DNA of 4,141 nucleotides, from the IMG/VR virus record IMGVR_UViG_2617270961_000003, one strand, 5' to 3'. This document shows positions 1 through 4,141 of the stretch, one piece after another (positions within the stretch are counted from its first letter, which is position 1; every line of letters begins with the position of its first letter). A program made the position numbers and the translations under genes. The DNA comes from a virus (Duplodnaviria; Heunggongvirae; Uroviricota; Caudoviricetes). The notes under the pieces are model-generated. The model saw only the letters and a program-made list of their open reading frames with translations. It ran no database searches and was not told the origin of the DNA.

Positions 1-118
1 AGACGATGACGTCACTGCCCGGCTGTATGCGCGAGGTTACCGACTGCGGCCTGAGTTTTTTAAGTGACGTAAAATCGTGTTGAGGCCAACGCCCATAATG
101 CGGGCAGTTGCCCGGCAT
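1..118 (-). CDS. insB: IS1 InsB, 5' portion (partial, cut by the window edge; continues at 3746..4141 if the ends are joined)
   Basis: ATG at 118..116 followed by CCG GGC AAC (M-P-G-N), the recalled InsB N-terminus MPGNSPHYG. It is in the -1 frame relative to insA and overlaps the insA 3' end. Confidence 0.75.
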
Positions 119-312
119 CCAACGCCATTCATGGCCATATCAATGATTTTCTGGTGCGTACCGGGTTGAGAAGCGGTGTAAGTGAACTGCAGTTGCCATG
201 TTTTACGGCAGTGAGAGCAGAGATAGCGCTGATGTCCGGCGGTGCTTTTGCCGTTACGCACCACCCCGTCAGTAGCTGAACAGGAGGGACAGCTGATAGA
301 AACAGAAGCCAC
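37..312 (-). CDS. insA: IS1 InsA (transposition inhibitor / N-terminal part of the InsAB' transposase)
   Basis: 91-aa [46 protein letters not shown]... is the IS1 InsA sequence as I recall it, with a zinc-finger-like CxxC...CxxC N-terminus. Confidence 0.95.
55..63 (-). other. IS1 programmed -1 ribosomal frameshift motif (A6C) joining insA to insB'
   Basis: Window 55..63 gttttttaa is the reverse complement of TTAAAAAAC at the 3' end of insA, the known IS1 frameshift site for InsAB' production. Confidence 0.8.
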
Positions 313-344
313 TGGAGCACCTCAAAAACACCATCATACACTAA

Positions 345-367
345 ATCAGTAAGTTGGCAGCATCACC
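345..367 (-). repeat. IS1 terminal inverted repeat (IRL), 23 bp
   Basis: Window 345..367 atcagtaagttggcagcatcacc is the reverse complement of GGTGATGCTGCCAACTTACTGAT. It is an imperfect inverted match to the other terminus at 3731..3753. Confidence 0.9.
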
Positions 368-506
368 TTAAGTTGCATCTCAATTGTTTCTTCAGCGTAA
401 ACAGAGTTTTTATACAAACTGACACTCTGGGTATCATAGTGTAGTTTTTACGATTGTAAATATCCTGCATGCAGGAACTCATCCTTTTGGATGATATCGC
501 ATACAA

Positions 507-1466
507 TTAATTTACCATCAGTCTTAGAGCCAGTTCGTCCGGATAGGGATCGAAGTAATTCTGTGTAAGCAAGTAATCATTAGGATACTCACCCAGATAA
601 TGCTTCAGCAGAGTCAACGGCGCAAGAAGAGGTAATGTGCCAGAACGATAGTTAAGTATAACCTCGCTCAACTCTTTACGCTGGCGTGTACTTAAGTAGT
701 TACTAAAATACCCCTGTATATGCATCAGCACATTCGTGTGATTTTTACGTGATGCAGGTTTTCTGAGAATCGCCATCAGCTTATCACGATACACCTCAAA
801 GTATGATTCAAGGTCCGCCCACTCGTGTATTGCAGCCACAAATGGTCCCATATCTTTATAGCCTGCCTGACTATGCGCCAACAACTGAAGCTTATAACGA
901 CTATGAAAAGCTAATAACTCTCTTCTTGATAATTTCTCCTTGTAAAGGTGATTGAGCTCATGCAAAGCAAAAACTCTTTCAACAAAATTCTCACGAAGCA
1001 CTGGATCATGTAATCGCCCATCCTCTTCAACCGGTAGCCAGGAAAACTTTTCCATCAAAGTGCTCGTAAATAGTCCCACTCCATCTTTACGACCTCGATT
1101 ACCATTTTCATCATAGACACGCACGCGCTCCATGCCACAGCTGGGAGATTTAGCACAAACCACAAACCCCGATACATCCTTTAATTTGTCCATATAAGAA
1201 CGACTAAACTCTGTCATTCTCTCTGTCACATCCTCATTCTGGTCGTGGCTGAAACACATCCGTATATTTCCTTGCGTCGAGCGCACAAGACGTAGAGCAG
1301 GACGCGGAACTGGCAGCCCTATAGCCATTTCCGGACATACTGGTCTGAATGTTACCCATTCCACTAATTTGTCCATTAAAAAGTCAGTTCTTTTGTGACC
1401 ACCATCAAAACGAACAGCAGAACCGGCCAAACAACCGCTGATTCCAATCACAGGTTTTTTTATCAT
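507..1466 (-). CDS. DUF523/DUF1722 fusion protein (TudS-like thio-nucleobase desulfidase-type N-terminal domain, YbgA-like C-terminal domain)
   Basis: 319-aa ORF. The N-terminal third has DUF523/TudS hallmarks: GISGCLAG (Cys12), RPVCPEMAIGLPVPRP (Cys44) and KSPSCG (Cys104, Cys110). The C-terminal half looks like the YbgA/DUF1722-type helical domain. A strong Shine-Dalgarno (GGGGGAG) sits 5 nt upstream of the ATG at 1466. Confidence 0.8.
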   Translation of the reverse strand: MIKKPVIGISGCLAGSAVRFDGGHKRTDFLMDKLVEWVTFRPVCPEMAIGLPVPRPALRLVRSTQGNIRMCFSHDQNEDVTERMTEFSRSYMDKLKDVSGFVVCAKSPSCGMERVRVYDENGNRGRKDGVGLFTSTLMEKFSWLPVEEDGRLHDPVLRENFVERVFALHELNHLYKEKLSRRELLAFHSRYKLQLLAHSQAGYKDMGPFVAAIHEWADLESYFEVYRDKLMAILRKPASRKNHTNVLMHIQGYFSNYLSTRQRKELSEVILNYRSGTLPLLAPLTLLKHYLGEYPNDYLLTQNYFDPYPDELALRLMVN

Positions 1467-1658
1467 ATTCTCCCCCTTGACTAATTCATTAACACATAAA
1501 CTGTGTAGTGCACGGAATAAATTGCCTTTCTGGCGTCATCACTGACAATTTTTCTGTTATGGACTATTCCTAATATAGTATGGAAGTTCTTTAAGTGATC
1601 GGTCGTAATCATCTATCTTTCATACTTACTCTCAACTATCAAAAGTACAGGATTTATT

Positions 1659-2183
1659 ATGAAGTTATGGCCTGTGTTGACTGGCATTGCACTCTCTTTC
1701 ACTCTTATAGCATGTAAGGCCCCGACACCACCTAAAGGTGTGCAGCCGATTACAAATTTTGACGCCAACCGCTACCTCGGAAAATGGTATGAAATAGCTC
1801 GCCTCGAGAACCGGTTCGAACGTGGTCTGGAACAGGTCAGCGCTACTTATGGAAAACGGAACGACGGAGGGATTCGTGTACTTAACCGTGGATACGATCC
1901 AACGAAAAATAAATGGAGCGAGAGCGAAGGTAAAGCATACTTTACTGGAGATACTAAAACTGCAGCATTGAAGGTTTCGTTTTTTGGCCCCTTCTATGGT
2001 GGCTATAATGTAATCAAACTGGATGATGAGTATAAGTATGCTCTTGTCAGTGGTCCGAACAGAGAATACCTATGGATTCTGGCAAGGACCCCAACTATTC
2101 CAGATAAAGTAAAAGCAGACTATGTGCGAACCGCTCAAAAGTTGGGATTCAATGTCAATGAATTATTATGGGTTAAACAATAA
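1659..2183 (+). CDS. blc: Outer-membrane lipoprotein Blc (bacterial lipocalin)
   Basis: 174-aa ORF with a lipoprotein signal peptide and lipobox (LIAC, Cys19). Long collinear similarity to E. coli Blc as recalled (NFDAxRYLGxWYEIAR, FERGLExV, SEGKAYFTG, AALKVSFFGPFYGGYNVI, YLWIL.RTPTI), but clearly divergent from it, roughly two-thirds identity by eye. Confidence 0.9.
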   Translation: MKLWPVLTGIALSFTLIACKAPTPPKGVQPITNFDANRYLGKWYEIARLENRFERGLEQVSATYGKRNDGGIRVLNRGYDPTKNKWSESEGKAYFTGDTKTAALKVSFFGPFYGGYNVIKLDDEYKYALVSGPNREYLWILARTPTIPDKVKADYVRTAQKLGFNVNELLWVKQ

Positions 2184-2211
2184 AATCCCTACCCGAAATA
2201 ATACTTATTAG

Positions 2212-2240
2212 AAAAAAACCAGCCTTTGGGGAGGCTGGCT
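2212..2240 (-). terminator. Rho-independent terminator for minus-strand transcription (candidate tR' of the Q-controlled late unit)
   Basis: On the minus strand: GC-rich stem CCAGCCT / AGGCTGG (2238..2232 and 2225..2219), 6-nt loop CCCCAA, then a T7 run (2218..2212). On the plus strand the hairpin has no following T-tract, so it is unidirectional. Confidence 0.55.
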
Positions 2241-2297
2241 AAATCAGGAAACAAGCTGTTATATGATAATAACTACGTTGCGATTCCAACATTTAAA

Positions 2298-2326
2298 ATG
2301 TTAGACTAATGACAATCAGACAGCAA
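2298..2326 (-). promoter_or_regulatory. Candidate sigma70 promoter immediately downstream of Q (PR'-like late promoter)
   Basis: Minus strand TTGCTG (2326..2321), 17-nt spacer, TAACAT (2303..2298). Position just after the Q stop and before the terminator matches lambdoid PR'/qut architecture. Sequence match to consensus is only moderate. Confidence 0.3.
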
Positions 2327-2338
2327 CTTTTCCTTTAA

Positions 2339-2716
2339 TTATTTCGAACAATCAGCATCCATCTCCAATCGGAGATCCAACACCATCAGCATACCCTCCA
2401 CTACGCCCTCAGCTTTCTGAAGCATCCTGCCAACCCAACAATCAGATCGCCCATGCTTACGTGCAAGCGCCATAAAAGTCATGCCGCCGACATAATAGTC
2501 CACCAATAAATCATGCAAATCGCTGTTGTTCTTTTTCAGACGGGCCATGCACCCGCAAATGATCATCGCGTCATCGTCACAACATTGTGGGCGAGATTTT
2601 ACTTTTGAAGGAATTAATCCCTTAAAACCGGCGGCAATGGACGACCAGGTCACATCTTCATGATTATTAGCCGCCCACGCTCCCCAACGCTCAAGAACCA
2701 TCTGAATATCACGCAT
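2339..2716 (-). CDS. quuD: Phage antitermination protein Q (DLP12 QuuD-like)
   Basis: ORF-track protein contains [35 protein letters not shown]...[16 protein letters not shown] (a Cys-rich zinc-binding motif), matching the DLP12-type Q antiterminator as recalled. I place the start at the first ATG (2716..2714), which has GGAG 7 nt upstream; the track's 2731 start is a TTG and less likely. Confidence 0.8.
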
Positions 2717-2801
2717 CAACTTACTCCACAAAACTCAGACCAGAACGCCAATTACAAGCAAAAATCAACAAAACAGTATTAGTTGATTGTTATCTCTGAC
2801 T

Positions 2802-2939
2802 TCATACTCCTGCTCCTGTCAGTGTTTTGGCGTAATTCTTCAGTATTCGGTAATCGGTCAAAACAGAACCGGGGAAACGATATAAGCGCAGACGCCCCCA
2901 GCGGTGGCGAAGAAGTTCTGCCATATTAAACTCAAACAT
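2802..2939 (-). CDS. ylcG: Small ORF (45 aa) between rusA and Q, position-equivalent to DLP12 ylcG
   Basis: My own translation: [45 protein letters not shown]. Its ATG (2939..2937) overlaps the rusA stop (TGATG), and GGGG lies about 8 nt upstream. It is below the ORF-track size cutoff. The identification rests on synteny and size from memory. Confidence 0.45.
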   Translation of the reverse strand: MFEFNMAELLRHRWGRLRLYRFPGSVLTDYRILKNYAKTLTGAGV

Positions 2940-3301
2940 CATTCATTCCCCATTTCGGTGATGGTCAGTTCCAGCCTCCCACCTTTGGTAACAGGCATCT
3001 TCACAACGCGGTAATCAACGACCTGAGCATCATCCAGCCAGAAACCTGCTTTAGTGAGTGCGTCAAAAGCGGCTTTTTGCAGATTATCCAGGTCACGGCG
3101 ACGGCGATCCGGCATGTGGCACTCAATGCGGATTTTCACAGGCATAGTCAGGCCGATATCCAGCATTGCGTTTTTAATGATTCGGGCGACGTTATCGCGG
3201 TATGCCTGCCCCTCTGCGCTGACGTGCGTGCGCCCGCGATTATGGCGGTAATAGCGATTATTGCTCGGAGGCCAGGGTAATGTGATGCTGTAGGTATTCA
3301 C
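2939..3301 (-). CDS. rusA: Crossover junction endodeoxyribonuclease RusA (Holliday junction resolvase), lambdoid prophage type
   Basis: 120-aa [40 protein letters not shown]...[10 protein letters not shown], essentially identical to E. coli K-12 DLP12 RusA as recalled. The start codon in this sequence reads GTG and overlaps the upstream ybcO-frame stop (GTGA). Confidence 0.95.
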
Positions 3302-3426
3302 GCCTTAATAACCCCCTCTTTCAGCCAGATAACCTGTGTTCTCGCCATACCTTCCAGCGCGCATTCTTTTGCATATGCAGCATCGACTTGCTTGGCATGC
3401 CCTTTACCGGCAATCTTCTGTATGCG
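3298..3426 (-). pseudogene. ybcO: ybcO-like remnant: only the C-terminal ~42 codons remain open upstream of rusA
   Basis: Minus-strand frame ending at TGA (3300..3298) translates ...[40 protein letters not shown], matching the recalled YbcO C-terminus. The same frame is closed by TAG codons at 3429..3427 and 3435..3433, and no ORF of full YbcO size exists. Confidence 0.5.
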
Positions 3427-3507
3427 CTAAACCTAGATAGAATCCACTCTGTGCACATTGAAGCCCGCTCTATGCTTCCTTTCAGGTATTGAAGGGATTG
3501 AGATGGG

Positions 3508-3744
3508 CTAAGCATTATTGGCCTCCTGCATCAGGAGAAAGACAATCATGGAGGCGCGGAGAGGTCTGGTATCAAATATTGGGCTTACGCCTTTTGCATC
3601 CACACACCATTCAGTTAACTGGTCTAAGATAGAAATCCTGTATTTCTCAATAATCGGCCATGAAGCGCTCGGATCATTGCAGTAGTCAGGCAAATGATTT
3701 AATGGCTCAAAAGTTGTATCAGCATTTCCGGGTAATGACTCCAA
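3508..3744 (-). CDS. Hypothetical 78-aa ORF of unknown family; 5' end lies inside the IS1 terminal repeat (possible IS1-truncated gene or hybrid ORF)
   Basis: ORF-track frame starting at TTG 3744..3742, which is inside the IS1 inverted repeat. It is in the same frame as the ybcO-like remnant but separated from it by amber stops. I recognise no family. Coding status is uncertain. Confidence 0.25.
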
Positions 3745-3753
3745 CTTATTGAT
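3731..3753 (-). repeat. IS1 terminal inverted repeat (IRR), 23 bp
   Basis: Window 3731..3753 ggtaatgactccaacttattgat is the IS1 right-end repeat and pairs imperfectly with IRL at 345..367. Confidence 0.9.
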
Positions 3754-4141
3754 AGTGTTTTATGTTCAGATAATGCCCGATGACTTTGTCATGCAGCTCC
3801 ACCGATTTTGAGAACGACAGCGACTTCCGTCCCAGCCGTGCCAGGTGCTGCCTCAGATTCAGGTTATGCCGCTCAATTCGCTGCGTATATCGCTTGCAGA
3901 TTACGTGCAGCTTTCCCTTCAGGCGGGATTCATACAGCGGCCAGCCATCCGTCATCCATATCACCACGTCAAAGGGTGACAGCAGGCTCATAAGACGCCC
4001 CAGCGTCGCCATAGTGCGTTCACCGAATACGTGCGCAACAACCGTCTTCCGGAGCCTGTCATACGCGTAAAACAGCCAGCGCTGGCGCGATTTAGCCCCG
4101 ACATAGCCCCACTGTTCGTCCATTTCCGCGCAGACGATGAC
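3746..4141 (-). CDS. insB: IS1 InsB, 3' portion (partial, 5' end lies beyond the window edge / at 1..118)
   Basis: Track [51 protein letters not shown]...[12 protein letters not shown] matches the C-terminal ~125 aa of IS1 InsB as recalled. The frame stays open to the window end. Confidence 0.9.

Follow-up and report, generated by a model that had tools for sequence, protein, structure and literature searches.

A stretch of viral DNA of 4,141 nt, the IMG/VR record IMGVR_UViG_2617270961_000003 (hereafter the window, meaning the whole stretch analysed), carries two cargo genes directly behind a gene of the late antiterminator Q: blc, for a bacterial lipocalin, and rudS, for a predicted desulfidase of 4-thiouridine (s4U) in transfer RNA (tRNA). 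In our opinion, the region 368..2356 is very probably the Q-proximal two-thirds of a moron module of approximately 3.1 kb, which occupies the slot between the Q and holin genes of lambda- and DLP12-like phages, contains a blc–rudS pair captured from bacterial chromosomes and would be expressed both in the lysogen and, after induction, under the drive of Q. It is an ordinary accessory cassette of a known type, with cargo after Q, and not a new kind of element. Coordinates are positions in the window, where late transcription runs on the minus strand; the parts of the cassette and the adjoining Q gene are listed below (GC, guanine plus cytosine content).

368..506, minus strand: first 139 bp of the spacer between rudS and a PsrA-like AraC gene, from alignment with the intact cassette
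507..1466, minus strand: rudS, a fusion of TudS (DUF523) and DUF1722, 319 residues, from Pfam
1467..1658, no strand: divergent spacer between rudS and blc, 192 bp, 34% GC, from composition
1659..2183, plus strand: blc-like bacterial lipocalin gene, 174 residues, from Pfam and NCBIfam
2207..2240, minus strand: intrinsic terminator, candidate tR' of the late operon, from a terminator scan
2241..2356, minus strand: 3' end of Q and the Q–tR' spacer, where PR' and the Q-loading site are expected, from position
2339..2716, minus strand: late antiterminator Q, 125 residues, PF06530 (2e-51)

The block is widespread in Escherichia coli and keeps the company of Q. With window 400..2340 as a megablast query, it was found in 1153 of 5426 complete E. 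coli genomes (21%), with as many as three sites in one genome. These sites occupy several positions on the chromosome, and the prophages concerned are of the DLP12-like as well as the Qin-like kind. An 'antiterminator Q family protein' was annotated under every inspected match reaching the Q end, and the inspected rows included a sample spread evenly down the ranking. Twelve phage genome records also contain the block, with nucleotide identities of 99.5% for IdasGreatGrand and 91.7% for Jouyvirus 1H12 and the Lambda_ev series, and 127 IMG/VR contigs hold a near-identical copy. In the annotated phages and in an intact prophage the order of genes is Q, blc on the opposite strand, rudS, a gene for a helix-turn-helix (HTH) protein of 243 residues, holin, endolysin and spanin. 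Order and spacing are kept in at least 70 of 80 IMG/VR loci, and in almost all of 80 viral loci blc runs in antisense to late transcription. The proteins of the window are identical to their intact-prophage copies at 318 of 319 residues for RudS and at all 174 for Blc.

The limits of the module are given by comparison with K-12, in whose DLP12 prophage the place between quuD (Q) and essD (holin) is taken by nmpC, a gene that is also antisense. Homology to DLP12 ends at window 2357, within the 3' part of Q, and is found again from 11 bp ahead of essD. Because of these break-points, what is exchanged is a module of about 3.1 kb with the late-promoter and terminator stretch included, and 2241..2356 belongs to it since DLP12 homology begins only at 2357. 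From Q to holin the whole module has 38% GC, as against 50% for the nin–Q region and the lysis genes. Within the window, GC is 41.4% in the cargo (368..2338) and 48.6% in 2339..3301, and at third codon positions it is 0.40 in both rudS and blc, compared with 0.50 in Q and 0.59 in rusA. An earlier reading made from the sequence alone had the impression of a cargo more AT-rich than the rusA–Q block, and these values agree with it. The same reading had blc antisense and the DUF523/DUF1722 gene co-oriented with late transcription, and both genes lie as described; its view of non-phage cargo placed right after Q and tR' has also held, with chromosomal relatives found for the cargo and nmpC filling the slot in DLP12.

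The gene that follows rudS in intact copies is absent from the window. It has 732 bp and 31% GC, and its product is of the AraC type (Pfam HTH_18) and 47% identical over 159 residues to PsrA of prophage Sp4 of O157 Sakai, whose gene is likewise situated behind Q. With this Pfam assignment and the homology to PsrA, the idea that it is a MerR-type regulator like that beside Salmonella ORF319 was rejected; a gene of the MerR/MlrA type was met only in chromosomal loci such as those of Enterobacter. RudS, Blc and the AraC-like protein each form a PHROG family of their own, labelled 'unknown function', and none of the three matched the PADLOC defence models. In the plasmid collection searched, the matches were essentially only mislabelled chromosomes or very large records. 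Two more occurrences may be mentioned. In Nico21(DE3), a derivative of BL21(DE3), a Qin-like prophage with rem and hokD contains Q, blc and the start of rudS, which IS3 interrupts after approximately 49 codons (3501..4897 of the retrieved stretch). Two short contigs of a metagenome-assembled genome (MAG) named 'Candidatus Nanosynbacter sp.' D148_maxbin.008 (Patescibacteria) contain Q, blc, rudS, the araC-like gene and holin at 94-100% amino acid identity, and these copies are almost certainly a contamination of the bin by E. coli prophage DNA.

The gene with DUF523 and DUF1722 domains is rudS, with a predicted activity of a tRNA s4U desulfidase (s4U8/9), a function that the sequence-only reading had not recognized. 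Pfam recognizes PF04463 (2-thiour_desulf) at residues 7-149 with 2.7e-40 and PF08349 (DUF1722) at residues 192-309 with 1.9e-40. Such TudS–DUF1722 fusions have been named RudS and described as [4Fe-4S] desulfidases converting tRNA s4U into uridine (Jamontas et al., Nucleic Acids Res 2024, PMC11417400). Six enzymes were tested in that study, including RudS_vir, which is gp66 (H3V29_gp66) cloned from Escherichia phage 1H12; every RudS variant tested, RudS_vir among them, lowered s4U in E. coli tRNA, and overexpression of RudS_KT diminished the growth delay induced by ultraviolet A (UVA), while its Cys, Glu, Ser and Arg mutants were inactive (PMC11417400). The product of the window gene is identical to RudS_vir at 297 of 319 residues, with 22 substitutions. 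The predicted [4Fe-4S] ligands Cys12 (ISGCLAG), Cys44 (RPVCPEM) and Cys110 (SPSCGME) are present at the positions given in Table 1 of PMC11417400. Glu46, Arg55, Ser107 and Ser109 are also present, in the CPE and SPSC motifs, as counterparts of Glu51, Arg60, Ser111 and Ser113 of RudS_KT; they were placed by a fixed offset from the Cys ligands and not by alignment with RudS_KT. The ATG codon of rudS is preceded by a strong Shine-Dalgarno sequence, GGGGGAG. Between the window and 1H12, whose alleles are 92% identical in nucleotides, the ratio of non-synonymous to synonymous substitution rates (dN/dS) is 0.11 for rudS.

The product of the lipocalin gene matches PF08212 (Lipocalin_2) with 7e-44, the NCBIfam model PRK10477, 'outer membrane lipoprotein Blc', with 316 bits against a cut-off of 267, and the E. 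coli Blc structure 3mbt with E 3.5e-69. The mature part shares 99 of 155 residues (64%) with the chromosomal, crystallised Blc of E. coli. The lipobox L-I-A-C, MKLWPVLTGIALSFTLIA-C19-K, has Lys at position +2, and no residue for retention in the inner membrane is read there, so that the product is predicted to be an outer-membrane lipoprotein. Mathieu et al. (Nat Commun 2020, PMC6969025) count blc among the morons of infant-gut lambda phages, a collection to which 1H12 belongs, and give its presence as more than 50% of these phages. For blc, dN/dS between the two phage alleles is 0.06. Ratios as low as 0.11 and 0.06 show that selection maintains both rudS and blc in phages.

The 192-bp divergent spacer is where the cargo's own promoters would be expected. 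One weak promoter-like match facing rudS was noticed in it (1635..1608, minus strand). A 43-codon open reading frame (ORF) at 1481..1612, annotated in phage IdasGreatGrand, is not a gene; it is interrupted by a stop codon in 1H12.

Relatives of the pair were sought in chromosomes by a scan of one genome per species. RudS proteins with 66-76% amino acid identity are encoded in Citrobacter, Enterobacter, Kluyvera, Leclercia, Klebsiella, Pectobacterium and other genera, in non-phage neighbourhoods, and in 43 of 62 chromosomal rudS loci a Blc-like gene (69-82%) is located upstream on the opposite strand. These Blc-like proteins are closer to the Blc of the window than is E. coli's own Blc. The two genes are immediate neighbours in Citrobacter sedlakii and Citrobacter sp. 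JGM124, with a gap of 188 bp in C. sedlakii versus 192 bp in the window; in Enterobacter and Leclercia a regulator gene of the MerR/MlrA type and a transthyretin-like gene stand between rudS and blc. No homologues of Q or holin were found in the 62 loci, and in two of them, whose surroundings were inspected, the adjoining genes are for transporter, pseudouridine-synthase, acetyltransferase and (MerR-type) regulator proteins. Because the divergent pair also resides in these non-phage loci, it appears to be an old chromosomal pair of Enterobacteriaceae that was captured by phages as a unit long ago. The phage allele of rudS has 43% GC, compared with a median of 58% (range 47-62%) in the chromosomal homologues. 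A recent donor was sought and none was found: the E. coli/phage cluster numbers 2556 members, and the closest protein outside it, among 5.8 billion proteins, is 76% identical. The intergenic DNA is not alignable with that of Citrobacter.

Upstream of the cargo, in the sense of late transcription, Q belongs to PF06530 and is a distant relative of Q21 (structure 6p18 chain P, E 1.9e-8). Approximately 100 nt past its stop codon is the strong intrinsic terminator, with a 9-bp stem (2240..2217) containing 5 G-C pairs, a loop of 6 and a T7 run on the minus strand; the hairpin also lies 34 nt past the stop codon of blc. It was the only terminator-like site in a scan of 360..2800, and it is identical in phages IdasGreatGrand and 1H12. 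An Rfam search of the whole window (E<=1) gave no hit reaching its gathering score, the best being the terminator hairpin itself with 28.6 bits versus 50. The region 2150..2760 has a mean column identity of 98% among four relatives, and 2241..2356 gives a fold z of -3.9. With DLP12 the Q–tR' stretch has only short motifs in common, e.g. ATATAACAG, whereas coding regions are about 96% identical in DNA. This 9-mer, at 2262..2270 on the minus strand and at about 6400 of the K-12 stretch, contains the -10-like TATAAC and is a candidate for a core-promoter or sigma-dependent pause element.

In E. coli prophage FDAARGOS_497, tR' was the only terminator-like site found between Q and holin. The scan of 1H12 gave in addition a short hairpin within blc and, just behind the AraC-like gene and ahead of holin, a second site resembling a terminator. 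This second site (2334..2355, minus strand of the retrieved stretch) consists of a hairpin and a T-run; its counterpart was not detected in the FDAARGOS_497 prophage. It would fit a self-contained moron unit that is passed only by Q-modified polymerase. The best sigma-70-like match of the region is TTTACA-16-TATGAT at 460..433 on the minus strand (10/12), conserved in all relatives, and is presumably the promoter of the PsrA-like AraC gene. In the window it is 66 bp from the IS1 end and now directed into insA.

Taken together with gene order, these features suggest the following mode of action. In a lysogen, blc and rudS would be expressed from promoters within the 192-bp divergent spacer, and RudS would lower s4U in tRNA, leading to less UVA-triggered tRNA cross-linking, growth delay and guanosine tetraphosphate (ppGpp) signalling, a form of lysogenic conversion. 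Upon induction, RNA polymerase modified by Q and starting from PR' would ignore tR', as in the lambda paradigm, and read across blc in antisense, rudS in sense and then the lysis genes. Thus rudS would also be a late gene, and blc would be opposed by antisense transcription. Q-dependent read-through is proposed because intact phages have their lysis genes beyond the cargo. As to the physiological role, our hypothesis is that the cassette may lessen UVA-induced cross-linking of tRNA in lysogens, guard translation after UV induction, or both, by extrapolation from over-expression data (PMC11417400).

Several points weigh against this interpretation. PR' was located neither by a consensus scan, which gave no convincing -35/-10 pair, nor by alignment with DLP12. 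Being AT-rich (31-43% GC), the cassette may be silenced by H-NS in lysogens. In the divergent spacer the resemblance to promoters is weak (matches of 9/12), and shuffled sequence gives such matches no less often. In the window itself, IS1 replaces the early region that would drive Q and separates the PsrA-like regulator from rudS, and the regulation of this copy may differ or be lost. Finally, the published UVA phenotype belongs to an over-expressed Pseudomonas enzyme and not to the phage enzyme, and RudS_vir was seemingly less active on tRNA than RudS_ST at comparable protein levels (PMC11417400); because of this lower activity, the removal of s4U in a single-copy lysogen may be small.

Among other explanations, the one with the strongest claim considers RudS mainly a tool of host takeover in the lytic cycle: late, Q-driven stripping of s4U would keep translation going after UV induction, through a block of the growth arrest and stringent response that depend on s4U, or alter tRNAs targeted by host defences. 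The gene points the same way as the late operon and has its place between tR' and holin, so that Q-modified polymerase must cross it, and UV is an inducer of lambdoid prophages. Moreover, s4U is the UVA sensor of tRNA, and over-expression of RudS diminishes the UVA growth delay (PMC11417400). Nevertheless, rudS has a strong ribosome-binding site of its own and shares with blc a conserved divergent spacer inherited with the pair, and in 1H12 the unit ends ahead of holin in a terminator-like site, all of which is usual for morons that are active in lysogens; no match to a defence or anti-defence family was obtained. We regard a mainly lytic role as rather unlikely, and it is compatible with the proposed moron module expressed in both states, not exclusive of it.

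A more specific and more speculative proposal is that rudS in the Q-controlled late operon is an induction-coupled device. UV would both induce the prophage and cross-link s4U8 of host tRNA, and RudS, expressed late and perhaps also at a basal level, would by stripping s4U avert the UVA-triggered aminoacylation block and stringent response and secure late translation, with Blc as the envelope arm of an ancestral light- and oxidative-stress pair. This is a doubtful idea; if it were true, a prophage would set about 1 in 5 E. coli strains apart from K-12 in their UVA physiology and in the dynamics of s4U in tRNA. A literature search for a link between lipocalins and a LitR light regulon gave nothing usable.

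It is improbable that the copy in the window is an inert relic, i.e. intact genes stranded between IS1 copies in a decaying prophage, without expression or function. Such a fate would agree with IS1 on both sides, through which the early region, the AraC-like regulator and the lysis genes have been lost or set apart, and with a cassette often hit by insertion sequences (IS1, IS2, IS3, IS200/605, ISVsa5) and truncated in the BL21 lineage. However, both ORFs are of full length and almost unchanged relative to intact-prophage copies (318/319 and 174/174), the divergent spacer with its candidate promoters is intact, and the family is under strongly purifying selection. Less probable still is the convergent layout as a selected switch, in which antisense RNA from Q read-through shuts off blc at induction. 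Although blc is antisense in nearly all of the 80 viral loci and nmpC of DLP12 is likewise antisense, a blc gene on the opposite strand already exists in 43 of the 62 chromosomal loci, directly adjacent in two of them, and the orientation thus simply came along with the block at its capture; morons that run against late transcription, such as bor in lambda, are common and are not known to act as switches. Lastly, that the pair is an ordinary chromosomal locus of the host, beside which a prophage fragment has landed, can practically be dismissed: a homologous pair is indeed chromosomal in other Enterobacteriaceae, but of the complete E. coli genomes only 21% have the block, at several chromosomal positions and in DLP12-like and Qin-like prophages, with Q adjoining in every inspected row reaching the Q end, it lies between Q and holin in phage genome records and IMG/VR contigs, and it is poorer in GC than the chromosomal homologues by 15 points. 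The sequence-only reading had named just such a host locus as the finding that would speak against phage cargo, and the prevalence of 21%, the adjoining Q and the presence inside phage genomes contradict it.

The remaining parts of the window are two portions of IS1 and a fragment of the nin region.

1..367, minus strand: IRL-proximal part of IS1, with insA at 37..312 (minus strand); its end abuts the cassette at 367/368
2802..2942, minus strand: ylcG, a nin-region gene upstream of Q, from the ORF list and Pfam
2939..3301, minus strand: rusA, a nin-region gene upstream of Q, from the ORF list and Pfam
3508..3730, minus strand: C-terminal part of ninX, cut by the right-hand IS1, PF10765 (profile positions 46-114)
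3731..4141, minus strand: IRR-proximal part of IS1, in the same orientation as the left part, from the ORF list

Between rusA and the ninX fragment, 3302..3507 contains what is left of ybcO (DUF1364), a short piece marked as partial in the annotation of HeN100, and looks like a recombination scar of the nin region; a 64-codon ORF at 3321..3515 (minus strand) had no family match.

Homology to the intact relatives starts exactly at window 368. The 367/368 junction is identical in E. coli ET650 (6270..7050 of the retrieved stretch). There, IS1 has simply inserted, with duplication of a 9-bp target, TTAAGTTGC; the AraC-like gene continues past it, and a second IS1 has removed the lysis genes. With the same junction being a simple insertion in ET650, the idea that the left IS1 marks the end of a deletion of the remaining cassette was rejected. 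No holin, endolysin or spanin ORF is present between Q and the IS1 end at 367, in accordance with the sequence-only reading, which had remarked on their absence before IS1 but had not seen its cause; this is not a property of the cassette, and they are missing because IS1 interrupts it 139 bp after rudS. The right IS1 junction, in ninX, is the same as in E. coli HeN100. Exact searches for the IS1 junctions in IMG/VR gave no match.

The window starts and ends with the same 10 bases, AGACGATGAC, and its IS1 parts, 367 and 411 bp minus the 10-bp overlap, make up exactly one IS1 of 768 bp. Because of these shared ends and the summed length, the window reads as a circular permutation of IS1 plus 3363 bp. 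This could result from the collapse, in assembly, of a segment between two direct IS1 copies, from amplification in tandem or from excision as a circle. Neither of the junction sequences, TTAAGTTGC and GCATTTCCG, is a target duplication of the other. In ET650 the IS1 end, GGTAGTGACTCC..., differs from the right-hand IS1 end of the window, GGTAATGACTCC..., and because of this difference the two IS1 parts of the window probably belong to different copies. Other genomes have IS1, IS2, IS3, IS200/605 or ISVsa5 within the cassette, or truncations as in the BL21 lineage, and the AT-rich module looks like a hot spot for insertion sequences. In E. coli NCTC9080 (5295..9069 of the retrieved stretch), as well as in YZB902 and HE302, a composite IS1-corA-ysgD-IS1 of about 3.2 kb is inserted inside blc.

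Comparison with known systems shows what is familiar in this cassette. The stx genes of lambdoid prophages in enterohaemorrhagic E. coli are situated downstream of Q, PR' and tR', are co-oriented with late transcription and depend on Q; this dependence is known for stx, whereas for the cassette it is deduced from gene order. The nmpC module of DLP12 shares the quuD–essD slot, the antisense cargo and a similar size of about 3.1 kb, but its cargo is an unrelated porin disrupted by IS5, and its PR'/tR' stretch is different apart from short motifs. In Sp4 of Sakai, psrA is an accessory gene right after Q, like those of the window cassette, and no psrA homologue is in the window. Chromosomal blc–rudS loci (Citrobacter sedlakii, Enterobacter cloacae; also Salmonella ORF319, which is RudS_ST) encode RudS of 319 residues with the same Cys positions, but differ in sequence (66-76% for RudS, 69-82% for Blc, at the amino acid level) and in GC (47-62% against 43%), and no phage genes were detected near them.

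The closest system is that of RudS_vir in 1H12, which is the same gene in the same cassette, with 319 residues, Cys12, Cys44 and Cys110 and with blc, Q and tR' as neighbours in both; IS1 comes next in the window, and the AraC-like gene in 1H12. The words 'prophage' and 'lipocalin' are absent from the main text and abstract of PMC11417400. The infant-gut lambda phages (Lambda_ev series and 1H12) have the same cassette with 91.7% nucleotide identity, and the accessible part of PMC6969025 contains nothing on the DUF523/DUF1722 neighbour, the post-Q position or the chromosomal ancestry of the pair. Thus, the use of the post-Q site for cargo, the status of blc as a moron of lambda phages and the activity of phage RudS are already on record, in publications or annotation. 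The joint blc–rudS cassette, its chromosomal ancestry, its fixed place after Q and its prevalence of 21% in E. coli were not found described in the literature searched.

Summarizing the significance of these data, the annotation of prophage genes as 'YbgA family / DUF523-DUF1722' can be corrected to RudS, an eraser of tRNA 4-thiouridine for whose phage allele there is experimental evidence. In practical terms, these results are of modest value. The synteny of blc and rudS across Enterobacteriaceae provides a small new lead on the role of bacterial lipocalins. According to PMC11417400, a work done with E. coli BL21(DE3), TudS/RudS homologues are missing from E. coli, and a functional-looking rudS in 21% of complete E. 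coli genomes contradicts this statement. In the two laboratory strains checked, no intact rudS was seen: K-12 has nmpC in DLP12, and the BL21(DE3)-derived strain has the copy truncated by IS3. Since rudS occurs in 21% of E. coli genomes and no intact copy was seen in K-12 or the BL21(DE3) derivative, differences between strains in tRNA s4U, UVA growth delay and the ppGpp response may trace to this prophage cassette.

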